Assembly: GCF_003334255.1 (NCBI RefSeq)
Contig: NZ_QOWU01000090.1
Reading direction: 5' to 3' (one strand)
Length of the DNA: 9,233 bases
Source of the DNA: Escherichia coli
Lineage (GTDB): Bacteria; Pseudomonadota; Gammaproteobacteria; Enterobacterales; Enterobacteriaceae
Part shown: positions 3,490-9,233 of the stretch, piece by piece
How positions within the stretch are numbered: the first letter of the stretch is position 1
How the letters are laid out: every line of letters begins with the position of its first letter
Translations under genes and position numbers: made by a program
The notes under the pieces: generated by a model
What the model was told of the DNA's origin: nothing
What the model saw: the letters and a program-made list of their open reading frames with translations, nothing else
The model's database searches: none

Positions 3490-3779
3490 TGAAAGAATAT
3501 AACGGTGAAAAACGATACAAAGATTATCTATTAAGGCGCTACAGCATTTCTCGTGAAGGTCATCTTCTGAAAGATACTCATGGGGAGGTTTACCGGATTC
3601 GACCGAAGAAGGAAGGAAAGAATTATTTCTTTTTTGATGGTGTGACAGATTTAAAGATTGACGCTTTGAGGTTTGCAGTGATGTATCATTTTGATGTCTG
3701 GGATTCAGTCCACCAGCTACGATTAAAAGACGGTGACCCCGGTAATCTGAAGGCCACCAATATCATCACAAAACGTTAG
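3489..3779 (+). CDS. Hypothetical 96-aa protein, weak resemblance to HNH_3/NUMOD4-type phage endonuclease scaffolds
   Basis: ATG overlaps the rep stop (TAATG). YSISREGHLLKD...GKNYFFFDG...H-x4-KDGDPGNLKATN loosely follows the Y-x-V-S-x-x-G ... H-x-DGD-x-x-N-x-x-x-NL pattern, but the key Asn/His positions look degenerate. Confidence 0.5.
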   Translation: MKEYNGEKRYKDYLLRRYSISREGHLLKDTHGEVYRIRPKKEGKNYFFFDGVTDLKIDALRFAVMYHFDVWDSVHQLRLKDGDPGNLKATNIITKR

Positions 3780-4011: not shown

Positions 4012-4040
4012 ATAATATCATGTAAATGAGATGTTGACAA
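4012..4040 (-). promoter_or_regulatory. Sigma70 promoter for the 61-aa membrane protein
   Basis: - strand TTGTCA (4040..4035), 17 nt, TATTAT (4017..4012). Its -35 overlaps the -35 of the divergent + promoter. Confidence 0.55.
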
Positions 4041-4062
4041 TATGTTAAATAAATGTTAAGAT
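4034..4062 (+). promoter_or_regulatory. Near-consensus sigma70 promoter of the 4099..5374 operon
   Basis: TTGACA (4034..4039), 17 nt, TAAGAT (4057..4062). It is overlaid by three tandem 11-bp repeats: ATGTTGACAAT, ATGTTAAATAA, ATGTTAAGATT (4031..4063). Confidence 0.65.
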
Positions 4063-4098
4063 TGTAGTATGAGTAAGAGATTTAAGGAGATTTTTACA

Positions 4099-4389
4099 AT
4101 GACTCACACAGTTACGCGCCTTTTGCCAGAGGCATTTGAACGACTGGCAGCAATCAAAGCCAAATATCCCGATATGAAGCACACAGCGCTTGTTGCAGAG
4201 GTTTTAAAAGAGCCGGTAGACTTGACCCCTTTCGATAACGTTAAGGGCGTTGCAGAGGGTTCTAAGGCCATCAGAATCACAACGGGCCAACTGGAACTAC
4301 TCAAAGCACAGTCCGCAGTAGCAGGTTGCTCAATGATTCAGGTCTTAAGCGCAAAGGTTCATCAATTAGCGGATAAGCTGGGGGTTTAA
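4099..4389 (+). CDS. Small DNA-binding-like protein with two tandem ribbon-helix-helix-like segments
   Basis: SD AAGGAG (4083..4088), 10 nt, ATG 4099. The ORF track starts at ATG 4069, which coincides with the predicted transcription start. TVTRLLPEAFERLAAIKAKYPDMKHTALVAEVL and AIRITTGQLELLKAQSAVAGCSMIQVLSAKV each fit a strand-helix-helix pattern. This was judged by eye only. Confidence 0.6.
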   Translation: MTHTVTRLLPEAFERLAAIKAKYPDMKHTALVAEVLKEPVDLTPFDNVKGVAEGSKAIRITTGQLELLKAQSAVAGCSMIQVLSAKVHQLADKLGV

Positions 4390-4814
4390 TGCTATGTACA
4401 TTTGATTATCATGCGTTTTATCGACATAGAGGTCATCTTGTCCGTGAGAATAACGGAACATGGAAAGATTTAACTCGTAATGCTGAACCCTTCACACACC
4501 AGCAATTAAAATCCCGCTTCTCCAGATGGAAGAATGCACCAGCAGATACTGGTGATTTTGAGATTATCCATACCTTCGATTATGCCTCAGAAGATGACCT
4601 TCACGATGCAATTAAGCTGATTGAAGACTTCAATACCTCAGAAAATGTGGATGGTGACAAATATAAATCCCGTGGTAACCGCTATAACCGTGATGATATC
4701 ACTCAGGCCATAAATGCTGGTCAATCTCAGCGATACATTACAGAAAAATATGGTATTTCACGGAGACAGTATTTCTACGTTAAATCATTGATTAATAAAG
4801 ACAATTCAAAATAA
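4389..4814 (+). CDS. Hypothetical 141-aa protein with a C-terminal resolvase-type HTH
   Basis: ATG overlaps the upstream stop (TAATG). The C-terminus DDITQAINAGQSQRYITEKYGISRRQYFYV resembles HTH_7. The N-terminal ~100 aa are unrecognised. Confidence 0.6.
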   Translation: MLCTFDYHAFYRHRGHLVRENNGTWKDLTRNAEPFTHQQLKSRFSRWKNAPADTGDFEIIHTFDYASEDDLHDAIKLIEDFNTSENVDGDKYKSRGNRYNRDDITQAINAGQSQRYITEKYGISRRQYFYVKSLINKDNSK

Positions 4815-4820
4815 CCATCT

Positions 4821-4920
4821 CAGTAACGGTAGAATGCACTTTACAGGCAGAGTTGCACCTTAATTTGATAAATTACCTTACCAGCCAGTGCAACTCCCTC
4901 TGTAACCCGCATGGTTACTG
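4821..4920. other. 100-nt imperfect long hairpin / cruciform-capable element
   Basis: Nested arms: CAGTAAC 4821..4827 / GTTACTG 4914..4920; ATGC 4834..4837 / GCAT 4909..4912; TTACAG 4841..4846 / CTGTAA 4900..4905; GAGTTGCAC 4850..4858 / GTGCAACTC 4888..4896. That is 26 bp in total, with a 29-nt AT-rich apical loop. Confidence 0.6.
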
Positions 4921-4973
4921 GCCTCAGAATGGCTATTTTAAGAGGTCTGAGATGTGTTTTAGAGGAATTTAAA

Positions 4974-5297
4974 ATGAGCAATTACGAATTACAGATTTTC
5001 GTTGATAACGACACCGCTATGATGATTCAGGCTTTCAGTGATTCCGGTGTATCAATTGATTTTGACAGGCTGTTAAAGCTGATGGCTGATAATGCAGAAA
5101 ACATCTCTGACTTTATTCAGTCGGTGGAGTTTAACGAGCCTCGAATGATGCTACCAATTACCGACTCAAACATGAAAAGATTGGTTATCGAGCAAACGAA
5201 CAAACACAGTATTTCCCCAGAGCAATTTTTGAAAGGTGCTGTGACAATCCTGCACAGCGATAATATTCTGGTGACGGATTCTATGAGGGTTCACTAA
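4974..5297 (+). CDS. Hypothetical 107-aa protein
   Basis: SD GAGGA (4963..4967), 6 nt, ATG 4974. The longer ORF start at 4911 lies inside the hairpin element and has no RBS. The C-terminal MLPITDSNMKRLVIEQTNKHSISPEQFLKGAV is weakly RHH-like. Confidence 0.6.
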   Translation: MSNYELQIFVDNDTAMMIQAFSDSGVSIDFDRLLKLMADNAENISDFIQSVEFNEPRMMLPITDSNMKRLVIEQTNKHSISPEQFLKGAVTILHSDNILVTDSMRVH

Positions 5298-5374: not shown

Positions 5375-5406
5375 TGTTACCAATCTGTTAAAAAGCTGTT
5401 GACAAA
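5374..5406. promoter_or_regulatory. Three tandem 11-bp TGTT repeats ending on the -35 box
   Basis: ATGTTACCAAT 5374..5384, CTGTTAAAAAG 5385..5395, CTGTTGACAAA 5396..5406. The same unit and phase occur at 4031..4063. Confidence 0.55.
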
Positions 5407-5427
5407 TAACCTTAAGCATGGCATAAT
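5399..5427 (+). promoter_or_regulatory. Near-consensus sigma70 promoter with no adjacent conventional gene
   Basis: TTGACA (5399..5404), 17 nt, CATAAT (5422..5427). A second -10-like TATATA follows at 5430..5435. Confidence 0.65.
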
Positions 5428-5433
5428 TGTATA

Positions 5434-5652
5434 TATGAGGATAGTCTTCTATCCGAAGTCTATAGGAAGAGCAATTTTTCCTAAAATCATATTTTCAATA
5501 ATCCGATGGATGGATATTCTGAGTTGGAAAGGTGCAATGCTTTTCGTCATGGCCTTTCAGTTTAGTCTGAGAGGTCATCTCAAAAAGTGCTTAATCATTC
5601 ATTATTGAACCCTTACAGCTTTGCCCTAACTCATGATTAGGGCGTTTTCTTT
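5434..5652 (+). ncRNA. Candidate ~0.2-kb structured short transcript (promoter to first terminator); alternative reading is a leaderless 57-codon ORF at 5435..5608
   Basis: It is bounded by the promoter above and terminator T1. Hairpins: GGATAG-TCTT-CTATCC 5439..5454; TAGGAA-N9-TTCCTA 5463..5483; GAAAGG/CCTTTC 5527..5558; TGAGA-GGTCA-TCTCA 5568..5582. No SD-preceded ORF is present. An ATG at 5435 sits at the predicted +1 and opens MRIVFYPKSIGRAIFPK... (rich in ATA/AGA codons). Confidence 0.35.
5623..5652 (+). terminator. Intrinsic terminator T1
   Basis: GCCCTAA (5623..5629), 7-nt loop, TTAGGGC (5637..5643), then GTTTTCTTT. Confidence 0.65.
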
Positions 5653-5721
5653 AAGAGTTTTGAAACAGAGCTTTTAAAGAAAGTTTTCCTGAAACTTCGT
5701 TAACGTTATAAGCAAACCTTC

Positions 5722-5757
5722 AAAGCCCTTCACAGATTATGTTTAGGGCTTTTCTTA
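5722..5757 (+). terminator. Intrinsic terminator T2 (3' half nearly duplicates T1)
   Basis: AAAGCCCT (5722..5729), 15-nt loop, AGGGCTTT (5745..5752), within the T-rich run TTTTCTT (5750..5756). Confidence 0.55.
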
Positions 5758-5842
5758 ATAGAGCATCTTTAATAAATCGTTAAGTCATCTTCTAAGTGTA
5801 TTGGCGTTGAAGGTGCTCTATTAAGAAATAACCACACTTAGA
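5754..5842 (+). promoter_or_regulatory. Leader with two interleaved inverted repeats reaching the RBS of the 5854 gene
   Basis: CTTAATAGAGCA 5754..5765 / TGCTCTATTAAG 5814..5825 (12 bp perfect). TCTAAGTGT 5791..5799 / ACACTTAGA 5834..5842 (9 bp perfect); its 3' arm overlaps the start of the SD GAGGA 5841..5845. Confidence 0.45.
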
Positions 5843-5853
5843 GGAAAAAAATA

Positions 5854-6580: not shown

Positions 6581-6796
6581 ATGATTGATTTGCAACAGCG
6601 TTATGAAACTATTAAGTCGGCTTGTGAAAACTTAAAGTTACAAACCAAGCCAGCCTTAAGAATTAAAACCAAACATCAAATTATCACCTCACACAAACCA
6701 AAAACACGCAAGATTCCAAAGTGGTGTATTGACCGTATTCCTTCTGATGCTCAAATCATAGGTGAAACGGAATTACATTATCTTGTCCGACATTAA
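6581..6796 (+). CDS. Hypothetical 71-aa basic protein
   Basis: SD GAGGTGAG directly upstream of ATG 6581. The ORF track extends to 6470, but that extension overlaps the previous gene and lacks an RBS. Confidence 0.5.
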   Translation: MIDLQQRYETIKSACENLKLQTKPALRIKTKHQIITSHKPKTRKIPKWCIDRIPSDAQIIGETELHYLVRH

Positions 6797-6823: not shown

Positions 6824-6866
6824 GGGAGAGATTATCGAGTGATATCGGTAGTTTCTCCCTTTTTTG
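6824..6866 (+). terminator. Intrinsic terminator after the 5854..6796 gene pair
   Basis: GGGAGA (6824..6829) pairs with TCTCCC (6854..6859). A short inner CGA/TCG pairing is possible. A TTTTTT run follows at 6860..6865. Confidence 0.5.
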
Positions 6867-6872
6867 TATGTG

Positions 6873-6915
6873 TGCTACGTGAAATCTTCTGAACAGATAT
6901 ACCCACCAAAAATTA
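6873..6915 (+). repeat. 43-bp direct repeat, copy A (promoter-like module upstream of the tape-measure gene)
   Basis: TGCTACGTGAAATCTTCTGAACAGATATACCCACCAAAAATTA. It is 36/43 identical to copy B at 9112..9154, and 25/27 over the first 27 nt. It contains TGAACA-17-TTATTT. GCTACGT 6874..6880 is inverted at ACGTAGC 6922..6928. Confidence 0.7.
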
Positions 6916-6956
6916 TTTTTTACGTAGCTCACGCTTAAAGAGGTGAAAAAATATGA

Positions 6957-9023
6957 ATGGCACAATTTAAAGTTGATGATTTTCTGATTGAGCTAGGTTT
7001 TAACTCTCAGAGGGTTTTAAAAGGTCTGGAAAAAGCCGAGAAACAAACGATGCAGGTAGCATCACGAATTGAGAAGCGATTGAATAAAGCTTTTAAAGTT
7101 AACCCTACGCCTTTAAATGATTCTCTCAAGGTCATGGAAAGAAATGTCGATAAAACTGTTTCCAAGATTGAGCAGCGTCTTAAAAACACTAAAGCGTTTA
7201 AGATTAAAACGGAAATTGAGGATACTTTAAAGCCACTTAGACAACCGAGACAGCCACGAATTAGCGGAAGCAGAGCAATTACAGCAGCGCATAGCGTGAA
7301 TATGAGCAAGCTTCGTGACTTTAATCCTATGCTTGAGAAGTATTTTAAAAGCCAGTATTACAGCTTAAGCAGTAAATCCAAGACACTTGGAAACGAAGCT
7401 TTTAATCGTGAGTTAGCAAAATTAAATCAATCTCTTCGTGAAACACTTTCTAAGTTTAACAAGACCACCAGCAAAAATAATCACAGTGAAAATGCTTCGA
7501 ATGGTCTGGATGTATTAGCTACGAGTGCAATCAAAGCAGGTACAGCCATTTATAGTTTTCAGACAGCCTTAGAAGCTTACAGGCGGATTATGGAGGTTGG
7601 TCTGAAAAAAGAAGCATCACAACGAGCGGCACAATTCGTTTTAGGTGATGAAGGTGCTAAACGAGCTACAGAATTTGTTAAGAATCTTGCTGATAGTAGT
7701 GGTGTAGACCAGATTGAAACATTAAGCAGTTTTGCTAAGTTTTCCGCTGGTGCTGGTGATATGAATGCAGACCAGAAAGAATCCTTATTTTCTAATGTGA
7801 TTGGTACATCCAGATTAATGGGGCTAAGCACCGATGAAATTAACGGGATTTTAAAAGCTTTCGAGCAGATGGCATCTAAAGGAAAGATTCAGGCTGAAGA
7901 GCTACGCGGTCAATTAGGTGACAGAATGGCAGGTGCTTTTCAGTTATTTGCCAGAAGTCTTGGGATGACTACGGAAGAATTAGACAAGGCTATGAAAGAC
8001 GGTAAGGTTCTTTCTAAAGATGTTCTCCCTAAAGTATCCGCTGAAATGGGAAAGATGATTGATAAAGCGGGAGGATGGGAAAAGATTATTAACTCTACTC
8101 AGACGCAGTTAGGCCGCTTAAGTAATTCATGGAATAATAATTTGGCCTTAATGTTCGATGGTTCACAGGAAGGTTTAACAGACTTTACAAGGTCACTGAC
8201 TAATTTACTTAATTCACTGGGTGGTCAATCTAAAAATCTTGGTGAACATTTTGGCGACTTGATGAAAAGCATGTCAAACGGTATTGATGATTTAACCACG
8301 ATTAGCTACCGAGTGCAGGGATTCTTTGACAGAGTGACCCTTGCTTACAGAGAATTAAATGACACTCAAAAAGCTGTAGCTGATGGTATCGCAAATGGCC
8401 TGTTAAGTGCATTAAAGGGACTTGCTGGTATTGTCGCTGTAAGGTCTGGTATTGGTGCTGTAGGTGGTATCTGGAACTTAATTAGGGCTATTTCCACGCT
8501 TGGGAATGTAGCAAATACAGCAGCAGGAAGAATTAATTCACGTTCTGGTGGTGTTGAAAGTGGAAAAAGTAGGCTATCTGTAGCTGATGCAATTACCAGA
8601 GTAATGATTGTCGGTATGACAACTGATGTGATTAATGCCATTGTCAAACCGTTCTATGAACGTCAGATGAGTAAGTCAGATAATCCGATTGATAAAGTTG
8701 TAAGGTCAAAGGTGGAACCCACAGACCAGGCATTAACTGGTGACATGAACTCTTTAGCCGCTGTTTTATGGGCTATGGTTCATGGCAAATCAAAAGATGT
8801 TCCACAGTTTTCACCTGAAGCATTAAATAATCTAAAAGGTCGAGTGGAAACATTCACACAAGATTTAAAGGTTATCAAGCCGTCAGTAAATATTCAGCCT
8901 CAGACAATCAATATCACAACTCAGACGGTACTTGATGGAAAGGTTATTGATGAAAGAACCACATCGCATATTAATCGTATGCAGGAAGATACCTTGATTA
9001 GCTCAGCTTACCCAGAGGAATAA
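6957..9023 (+). CDS. Phage tail length tape-measure protein
   Basis: 688-aa ORF. The core ...LMGLSTDEINGILKAFEQMASKGKIQAEELRGQLGDRMAGAFQLFARSLGMTTEELDKAMKDGKVLSKDVLPKV... is the conserved tape-measure block (TIGR02675-like). The N-terminal third is K/E-rich and helical. Gly/Ala/Ile-rich hydrophobic segments (GIANGLLSALKGLAGIVAVRSGIGAVGGIW) are typical of the family. SD GAGGTG lies at 6940..6945. Confidence 0.88.
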   Translation: MAQFKVDDFLIELGFNSQRVLKGLEKAEKQTMQVASRIEKRLNKAFKVNPTPLNDSLKVMERNVDKTVSKIEQRLKNTKAFKIKTEIEDTLKPLRQPRQPRISGSRAITAAHSVNMSKLRDFNPMLEKYFKSQYYSLSSKSKTLGNEAFNRELAKLNQSLRETLSKFNKTTSKNNHSENASNGLDVLATSAIKAGTAIYSFQTALEAYRRIMEVGLKKEASQRAAQFVLGDEGAKRATEFVKNLADSSGVDQIETLSSFAKFSAGAGDMNADQKESLFSNVIGTSRLMGLSTDEINGILKAFEQMASKGKIQAEELRGQLGDRMAGAFQLFARSLGMTTEELDKAMKDGKVLSKDVLPKVSAEMGKMIDKAGGWEKIINSTQTQLGRLSNSWNNNLALMFDGSQEGLTDFTRSLTNLLNSLGGQSKNLGEHFGDLMKSMSNGIDDLTTISYRVQGFFDRVTLAYRELNDTQKAVADGIANGLLSALKGLAGIVAVRSGIGAVGGIWNLIRAISTLGNVANTAAGRINSRSGGVESGKSRLSVADAITRVMIVGMTTDVINAIVKPFYERQMSKSDNPIDKVVRSKVEPTDQALTGDMNSLAAVLWAMVHGKSKDVPQFSPEALNNLKGRVETFTQDLKVIKPSVNIQPQTINITTQTVLDGKVIDERTTSHINRMQEDTLISSAYPEE

Positions 9024-9111
9024 ACAATGTTAGAGCTACTAATATTTATTGCCACACATGGCAATCTATTAATCTTTATCTAGTATGACGATTCAACTAT
9101 GAATAGTCGAA

Positions 9112-9154
9112 TGCTACGTGATTTCTTCTGAACAGATACCAACATCAAAAATTA
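9112..9154 (+). repeat. 43-bp direct repeat, copy B
   Basis: TGCTACGTGATTTCTTCTGAACAGATACCAACATCAAAAATTA. It is followed after 2 bp by the IS end. Confidence 0.7.
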
Positions 9155-9156
9155 GA

Positions 9157-9233
9157 TGAACCGCCCCGGGTTTCCTGGAGAGTGTTTTATCTGTGAACTC
9201 AGGCTGCCAGATCATTGTTTCCGATGGAAGCAT
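9157..9233 (-). mobile_element. Right end (IRR plus end of orfB) of an IS629/IS1203-like IS3-family insertion sequence, continuing beyond the window
   Basis: From 9157 the sequence reads TGAACCGCCCCGGGTTTCCTGGAGAGTGTTTTATCTGTGAACTCAGGCTGCCAGATCATTGTTTCCGATGGAAGCAT. From memory this is the reverse complement of the IS629-type right end (TG...CA termini, IR TGAACCGCCCCGGG). G+C jumps abruptly relative to the flanking DNA. Confidence 0.85.
9199..9233 (-). CDS. IS3-family transposase OrfB, C-terminal fragment (truncated by the window edge)
   Basis: The reverse-strand frame reads ...ASIGNNDLAA then stop (tca 9199..9201 on +), matching my recollection of the IS629 OrfB C-terminus (...YYASIGNDDLAA). 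Confidence 0.7.
   Translation of the reverse strand, partial: ASIGNNDLAA

Follow-up and report, generated by a model that had tools for sequence, protein, structure and literature searches.

A 66 bp repeat unit with inverted arms and a −10-like hexamer upstream of phage-like tail genes in an Escherichia coli island: a candidate promoter/operator cassette

The Repeat Unit and Its Surroundings

The DNA analysed here (the window, 9233 nt of Escherichia coli contig NZ_QOWU01000090.1) contains a gene for a phage-like tape-measure protein with a copy of a short repeat unit before it and another after it. The anatomy, conservation pattern, position, orientation and distribution of this unit were established from the sequence and by comparison with relatives. 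The tape-measure gene (6940..9023, + strand, counted from its GAGGTG ribosome-binding site) begins with an ATG at 6957, encodes 688 aa (open reading frame (ORF) 6957–9023) and matches the Pfam family TMP_3. Upstream lies an intrinsic terminator (6824..6866, + strand), with a 15-pair stem at 6824–6859 followed by a T-tract, that closes a gene pair encoding proteins of 236 and 71 aa. One copy of the unit (copy A) is placed between the terminator and the tape-measure gene, and the other (copy B) begins 88 nt after the tape-measure stop codon at 9023. A preliminary description of the window had reported a 43 bp direct repeat with 36/43 identity, one copy just downstream of a terminator and the other about 90 bp past the tape-measure stop, and each of these points was confirmed; the repeat (6873–6915 and 9112–9154) is the top direct repeat of the window. 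Its 27 nt core, TGCTACGTGANNTCTTCTGAACAGATA, occurs exactly twice in the window and had no matches in 200 dinucleotide shuffles.

The full repeat unit is longer than the repeat first described, at 66 bp, and copy A spans 6873..6938 (+ strand). Copy B is cut short (9112..9157, + strand) by the end of an IS3-family insertion sequence (IS1203/IS629-like; 9157..9233, + strand), which breaks it at 9157/9158, within its TAGATT hexamer (TAGAT/T). The gene that normally follows copy B is therefore missing from the window, where the truncated copy is a relic that the insertion sequence has parted from its gene. In relatives, the intact form precedes a gene for a Dit-like homologue of gp68 of phage Felix O1. 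One such relative, free of the insertion sequence, is E. coli GB089 (locus L001; collected loci are given L numbers), in which the units at 14068–14133 and 16307–16372 are 85% identical across 66 bp. Copy A of L001, TGCTACGTGAAATCTTCTGAACAGATATACCCACCAAAAATTATTTTTTACGTAGCTCACGCTTAA, is followed 3 nt on by the GAGGTG ribosome-binding site of the tape-measure gene, and 21 nt beyond its copy B, TGCTACGTGATTTCTTCTGAACAGATACCAACATCAAAAATTAGATTTCACGTAGCTCACGCTTAA, is the ATG of a gene with the annotation "phage baseplate protein". The distance from the end of the unit to the start codon is 3–90 nt.

Every unit carries a pair of inverted arms, GCTACGTGAAATCT and AGATTTCACGTAGC, which went unremarked in the preliminary description. 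The arms form a perfect 14 bp inverted repeat in some copies; their length is 9–14 bp, rising to about 20 bp in L016, L017 and a third copy (copy C). Besides the arms, the unit consists of an A-tract followed by a TAnnnT hexamer, and a conserved tail, TCACGCTTAA. In copy A, the left arm occupies 6874–6887, the variable centre 6888–6907, the A-tract 6908–6912, the −10-like hexamer TATTTT 6914–6919 (+ strand), the core of the right arm 6922–6928 and the tail 6929–6938.

Copy C is degenerate and inverted (~322–430, − strand; nhmmer E = 0.005 in the window and 4.6e-5 in L006). It has tail-like sequence on either side and a 25 nt hairpin insert at 384–408, adjoins the terminator of a small serine recombinase gene, and is directed towards the left end of the island in which the window lies. 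The hairpin mini-insert (TGATTCGGATAAGAATTATCCTCAT, on the minus strand in the window) is also found in copy A of L009, L074, L086 and L093, at the same left-arm point in different copies of the unit.

Conservation of the Hexamer, Arms and Tail

In an alignment of 18 distinct copies of the unit, positions T6914, A6915, T6919 and T6920 are invariant (18/18), and the three inner bases of the hexamer (6916–6918) vary. The other invariant or nearly invariant columns are the arm cores (CTACGT.A and ACGTA), an ATA in the centre, the A-tract, and CAC..TTAA in the tail; arms and tail are the best-conserved columns of all. The whole of 6888–6896 is variable, TGAACA included. A wider search, constrained only in arm and tail and leaving the centre free, gave 48 forward-oriented distinct copies, and in all 48 a TAnnnT hexamer (TATTTT, TAGAAT, TAGATT, TAATTT, TAGTTT or TAACTT) lies exactly 2 nt 5′ of ACGTA. 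There is no conserved −35 element, since the sequence 18 nt upstream of the hexamer is TGAACA, AAAGTT or AAAGCT, and TGAACA, a 4/6 match to the −35 consensus, is found in some variants only. By inspection, none of the aligned copies has the TG of an extended −10 ahead of the hexamer. This pattern is the signature, as read from the alignment, of a −10 element without a −35. A trade-off between the strengths of the two elements was considered and rejected, as every combination of −35 and −10 strength is found among the variants.

These comparisons change the promoter assignment made in the preliminary description, in which TGAACA served as a conserved −35 and TTATTT, 17 nt away, as the −10. TGAACA is shared by the two copies in the window and is not a family-wide feature, and the comparison favours TATTTT at 6914–6919 with an 18 nt spacer. 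The nearly invariant 27 nt upstream box of that description stands for the pair in the window (0/200 shuffles) but not for the relatives, which carry GTAAAGCTAATA or AAGCAAAGTTAATA in place of the core with its TGAACA stretch.

The orientation of the unit is strict. All A and B copies (162/162) are aimed at the downstream gene, and the centres at these two positions, adjoining the tail and leader, are in forward orientation in 157 cases and inverted in none.

Distribution of the Unit and Polymorphism of Its Sites

The unit was found in 459 of 5426 complete E. coli genomes, at 595 places (median 1 per genome, maximum 6) and on chromosomes only. Among GTDB species representatives it is present only in E. 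albertii, and it also occurs in 14 IMG/VR loci, 97 metagenome loci and islands of Salmonella. Neither 50,697 phage records (blastn) nor the Felix O1 genome (pattern search, approximate matching and nhmmer profile) contain it. The unit is restricted to one family of islands, carried by E. coli, E. albertii and Salmonella. When all collected loci were searched with a profile, 106 copies of B and 56 of A were returned, along with a few of C, which are degenerate and inverted; every copy inspected in the fetched loci was at island site A, B or C, with 1–3 copies per island. If the repeats preceded successive late transcription units, as had been proposed, further copies might be expected in front of other genes; the search found none, the sole extra copy being C, degenerate and inverted, at the island's left end.

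Copy B lies upstream of 97/97 Dit-like gene starts, a count that is biased because most loci were found through the unit itself, and it is present in 5/5 islands found independently of the unit. Copy A occupies 55 of 85 tape-measure sites (strain C2, for instance, has copy B but lacks copy A), so the bracketing of the tape-measure gene seen in the window is not a fixed feature of the island. The terminator at 6824–6866 is kept in all relatives, including those without copy A. At least six states of site A occur, among them an empty junction (GTAT/GAGGTG), a tail-only remnant, a different 25 nt hairpin, the unit with a 25 nt insert in its left arm, precise loss of the arms plus centre, and combinations. 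Comparison of filled and empty A sites revealed no target-site duplication. As B is present in every island seen and A is polymorphic, B appears to be the primary site and A the secondary one; copy A looks like a secondary duplicate, and B may be its source.

The Host Island and Its Ties to Felix O1

The window is a fragment of an island, lying between the end of an IS421 element (~1–100) and the IS3-family end (9157–9233); its coverage by any complete E. coli genome is at best ≤76%. The island is about 11 kb in length and is found at yecE (strains ZJ3920, APEC E12049 and C2), between lafU and dinB (GB089), and elsewhere in Salmonella enterica. It encodes a large serine recombinase, by which it integrates; in most cases, a small serine recombinase as well; a Dam-type methyltransferase with a fused helix-turn-helix domain; an O-like initiator of replication whose gene contains 23 bp iterons; the conserved 236 aa/71 aa pair; the tape-measure protein; and the Dit-like protein. 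There are also several small proteins without a family match, for which PADLOC and NCBIfam gave no function. Small conserved proteins of the island are encoded in the window by ORFs 4069–4389, 4389–4814, 4911–5297 and 6581–6796. The iterons in the window are four direct repeats (GACAAAATGWCA...) at 2897–2981, and are probably the origin of the island.

The tail genes tie the island to Felix O1. Identity of the tape-measure protein is 28% with gp67 of this phage and 28–29%, end to end, with the tape-measure proteins of Felix O1-type virulent myoviruses; DNA homology to Felix O1 begins at 6934, in the last bases of the copy A tail. The Dit-like gene (L001 16392–17162; counterpart at 44109–44906 of Felix O1, NC_005282) is absent from the window, the insertion sequence having taken its place from 9157. 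Its product is 81% identical to gp68 (ORF68), with residues 6–185 almost without differences, and its DNA is 92% identical to Felix O1 over 545 nt, with homology starting 14 nt into the gene. A second Dit-like allele is 80% identical to gp68. In Felix O1, gp67 and gp68 both belong to the virion, and how the phage is regulated in time is unknown (PMC3185647). Identities of 81% and 80% for the two gp68-like alleles, against 28% for the adjacent tape-measure protein, suggest repeated capture, or mimicry, of a helper tail gene. Two shorter matches, at 1399–1461 (84% identical to Felix O1 21578–21638, the leader of promoter P41) and 1329–1368 (83% identical to 13412–13452), were also found. The region resembling the P41 leader is located between the small recombinase and Dam genes, and the match in GB089 also covers a double TTGACA motif.

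An island-sized metagenome contig (L061, 11,233 nt) has a 55 nt terminal overlap, indicating that the island is circular, and a contiguous attP junction is present in a second locus (L112, 3763–4194). Circle and junction are, at the level of sequence, evidence of island excision. Given its recombinase of the large serine type, its iteron-bearing gene for an O-like initiator, tail genes like those of a helper, and the circular contig and attP junction, the island looks like a satellite or tail-interference element of Felixounavirus. Literature searches found no description of the island or the unit.

A Candidate Promoter/Operator Cassette

Quite possibly, the unit is an island-specific promoter/operator cassette, controlled by an activator or a repressor and placed before phage-like tail genes; this is the reading that we tentatively prefer, and its promoter activity and regulator binding are inferred. 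The TAnnnT hexamer after the A-tract would be a sigma-70-type −10 with no usable −35, so that RNA polymerase would need a helper factor, or else the promoter would be weak. The two inverted arms, about 41 bp apart centre to centre, would lie at about −54..−41 and −2..+12 and would be bound by a regulator supplied by the island or by an infecting phage. Transcription from copy A would start near 6925–6928, and the leader of the mRNA would begin with the conserved tail, over its first ~15 nt. Copy B would serve as promoter of the gp68-like baseplate gene, and copy A, as a duplicate of B set between the terminator and the tape-measure ribosome-binding site, would give the tape-measure gene a start of its own in place of terminator read-through. 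Copy C would fire leftwards, in the direction of the attachment site.

Support for a promoter also comes from the position of the units, which lie at the 5′ border of the Felix O1-homologous stretches, with copy A directly 3′ of an intrinsic terminator. The preliminary description had likened the repeats to activator-dependent late promoters. The gene-ward orientation, the terminator context and the invariant TAnnnT without a −35 agree with this, but the 27 nt box is not conserved and no such motif was found in the putative helper. Several other observations weigh against a promoter. A consensus promoter scan called neither copy, with 8/12 matches counted against a threshold of 9, and copy B sits between two co-directional genes that are possibly co-transcribed. 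Copy A is missing at 30/85 tape-measure sites where the gene and its ribosome-binding site are apparently intact, and so is dispensable there. The arms are equally compatible with a hairpin in RNA or DNA (folds with z of −1.9 to −4.3 against shuffles), and no candidate regulator was identified. Since the motif is absent from Felix O1, a late activator supplied by the helper would be one that has no such site in its own genome.

Alternative Explanations

The unit could instead act as RNA, its arms pairing within a polycistronic tail-gene transcript to form a processing site, a stabiliser or a site at which an RNA-binding protein adjusts how strongly the downstream gene is expressed. The hairpin would have a stem of 9–14 bp (up to ~20 bp in some copies) closing a loop of 27–45 nt, with a predicted stability of −16 to −22 kcal/mol, and 82.5% of the alignment cells in the arms can pair, compared with 20–45% in controls with slid partner columns. 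In some islands, copy B begins only ~10 nt after the stop codon of the tape-measure gene, making co-transcription likely, and the tail of copy A is able to pair with the Shine-Dalgarno region. One pair occurs as G-C (8), G-U (8) and A-U (1), but covariation is limited to this series and a few both-side changes; the covariation score of 0.131 compares with 0.092 in shuffles (5/500 reach it), in sequences that are related and mosaic. The nine core pairs are almost invariant and therefore give no covariation signal, the inner pairs are broken in 5–11 of the 18 copies, and there is neither a U-tract nor an Rfam match to the unit (a scan of the whole window with Rfam 15 gave three matches only, all at chance level and away from the unit). 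A pure hairpin leaves unexplained why TAnnnT and the A-tract, which would lie in its loop, are invariant and keep a constant distance from the arm, and few transcripts would hold copy A, which follows a terminator. For the arms alone, a protein site and a hairpin in RNA or DNA are not distinguished by the data; for the unit as a whole, a role purely as RNA is considered unlikely. Equally unlikely is that the unit has no dedicated role in regulation and is either a joint for recombination or a small, selfish palindrome; it would then serve as a conserved island-specific linker for homologous swaps of tape-measure and baseplate modules, in which the hairpin favours duplication and deletion. Identical 64-mers are found at A and B (the commonest variant 23 and 7 times, respectively), the unit is a mosaic of centre, arm and tail segments, and identity between islands jumps at copy B (e.g., from 94.6% to 81.2% in L021). 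The C-terminal types of the tape-measure protein assort independently of the Dit-like and leader types, and site A is polymorphic, with an empty state and the precise loss of arms plus centre; other short hairpins insert in or beside the unit. In a neutral linker, however, TAnnnT and the arms would not be expected to stay unchanged from E. coli to E. albertii and Salmonella. The copies are few, keep to the same sites and orientation, are found nowhere else in the 5426 genomes and lack target-site duplications, and the unit does not resemble the attachment sites of large serine recombinases. Nor does module exchange compete directly with a promoter, as recombination at a conserved promoter would give the same pattern and a position at junctions is expected of any conserved intergenic sequence. 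The preliminary description had itself allowed for a recombination or cassette boundary; the variants common to A and B and the identity breakpoints at B fit this idea, but the bracketing is not constant and no sign of a dedicated site-specific mechanism was seen.

A further possibility, which appears improbable, is that the arms are the binding or cleavage site of a protein with a role outside transcription, such as a nuclease or homing endonuclease in phage gene exchange, a packaging factor, or the small serine recombinase. The best-conserved parts of the unit are indeed two inverted arms of 9–20 nt, HNH endonucleases and serine recombinases are encoded by the island and Felix O1, and the units lie at the edges of phage-homologous segments. 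Absence of the unit from the phage genome rules against a shared packaging or homing site, and the gene-ward orientation and the −10-like hexamer are left unexplained. Inversion was seen in none of the 157 copies, and the 27–38 bp between the arms are too short for an invertase; for these two reasons, an invertible switch operated by the neighbouring small serine recombinase was ruled out.

Several more specific identities were also rejected. The attachment site of the large serine recombinase does not match, as the yecE junctions carry inverted TAAATACAC and GTGTATTTA, which are unrelated to the arms. Miniature inverted-repeat transposable elements (MITEs) or other dispersed palindromic repeats were dismissed as none of the inspected copies lay at an unrelated site and no target-site duplication was seen, although terminal inverted repeats are present. 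The GCTTAAC of the tail invited comparison with integron attC sites, which have their tail motifs in inverted arrangement; this arrangement is not found in the unit, and the only recombinases in the island are of the serine type. An intrinsic terminator is excluded by the lack of a T-tract 3′ of the right arm, and a terminator scan did not call one. A 22-codon frame is open in most copies, but the changes in it are non-synonymous and include indels, and no ribosome-binding site was seen. Late promoters of the P2/P4 type were rejected as TGT-N12-ACA was not matched within ~100 nt upstream of either hexamer, and those of the T4 type as TATAAATA is absent from both copies. The unit is not a copy of a helper late promoter, given its absence from the putative helper and from the phage records.

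Comparison with Known Systems

Families of factor-dependent promoters include those activated by P2 Ogr and P4 Delta, the Mu C- and Mor-dependent promoters, and the T4 MotA-dependent middle promoters (TAnnnT). The unit is similar to such phage and satellite promoters in having a recognisable −10 (TAnnnT), no usable −35 and a conserved upstream box, and in being repeated before morphogenetic genes of a putatively phage-dependent element. It differs in that it has neither TGT-N12-ACA nor TATAAATA, its motif is missing from the putative helper, and its conserved box is one arm of an inverted repeat whose partner arm spans the start site. By inspection, the left arm, which contains TGCT, lies near −50, whereas the MotA box lies at −30.

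The model of modular evolution holds that conserved boundary or linker sequences occur between the modules of mosaic phages. The unit resembles these as a short conserved intergenic sequence at which divergent gene modules are exchanged, but it has internal dyad symmetry and a fixed promoter-like core, and occurs at only two to three places. Switches such as fimS and hin, and MITE-like palindromes, share with the unit inverted repeats around a promoter-like centre, presence/absence polymorphism and a small serine recombinase gene nearby. In contrast to these, the unit keeps one orientation at A and B (157:0), encloses a segment far too short, and has neither dispersed copies nor a target-site duplication.

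For the island, the closest parallel is the Vibrio cholerae element PLE, which is a satellite of ICP1, a lytic myovirus, and integrates by means of a large serine recombinase (PMC6002521, PMC7145576). Both are small islands with a large serine recombinase and their own replication initiator, tied to one virulent myovirus lineage. They have no sequence relationship, however, and the island described here is set apart by its tape-measure gene and by a close copy of a baseplate protein of the helper. On a broader and more doubtful proposal, islands of this family would be undescribed PLE-like satellites, or tail-assembly saboteurs, of virulent Felix O1-type phages, with the unit as their infection-responsive late promoter/operator, timing the captured gp67-like and gp68-like tail genes on the schedule of the island and not that of the phage.

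If the unit is a regulated promoter, it would be the control point at which a small island of the chromosome produces tail proteins resembling those of a virulent phage group with wide use in Salmonella typing and biocontrol. It would also offer a compact handle (66 bp, two arms and one hexamer) on how the island senses a lytic phage and times its response to it, in a system in which the temporal regulation of the phage is unknown (PMC3185647), and could help show whether the island spreads with Felix O1-type phages or blocks them. Should it be a mere recombination linker, it would still mark the points at which the tail modules of the island are exchanged.

Other Elements of the Island

A 29 nt inverted repeat (20 nt exact, TCGTGAAGGTCATCTTCTGA) is present at 3551–3579 and 4578–4606, in two ORFs, its copies being 998 bp apart. 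The pair is centred on a sigma-70-like promoter (4034–4062), the repeat resembles the left part of the 66 bp unit, and both copies are present in only 5/29 loci.

The best sigma-70 match of the window, TTGACA-17-CATAAT with TG, is at 5399–5427. A second short hairpin module (GAGGATAGTCTTCTATCCGAAGTCTAT) lies 3′ of this promoter at 5437–5463; in other islands it reappears at site A (L008, L015, L014, L016 and L020), 3′ of the terminator and 5′ of the tape-measure gene, whether or not the unit is there. The promoter is followed by a 430 nt, ORF-poor leader (region 5399–5853) that extends to the 236 aa gene and contains a terminator-like hairpin (5622–5644) and a 22 nt inverted repeat (5751–5828); this leader could be an attenuator or a small RNA.

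The long leader of the Dit-like gene 3′ of copy B in L005 (18085–18165) can form alternative pairings, CAAAGGCTT with AAGCCTTTG, or AAGCCTTTGA with the Shine-Dalgarno region TCAAAGGAG, and these could constitute a translational switch.

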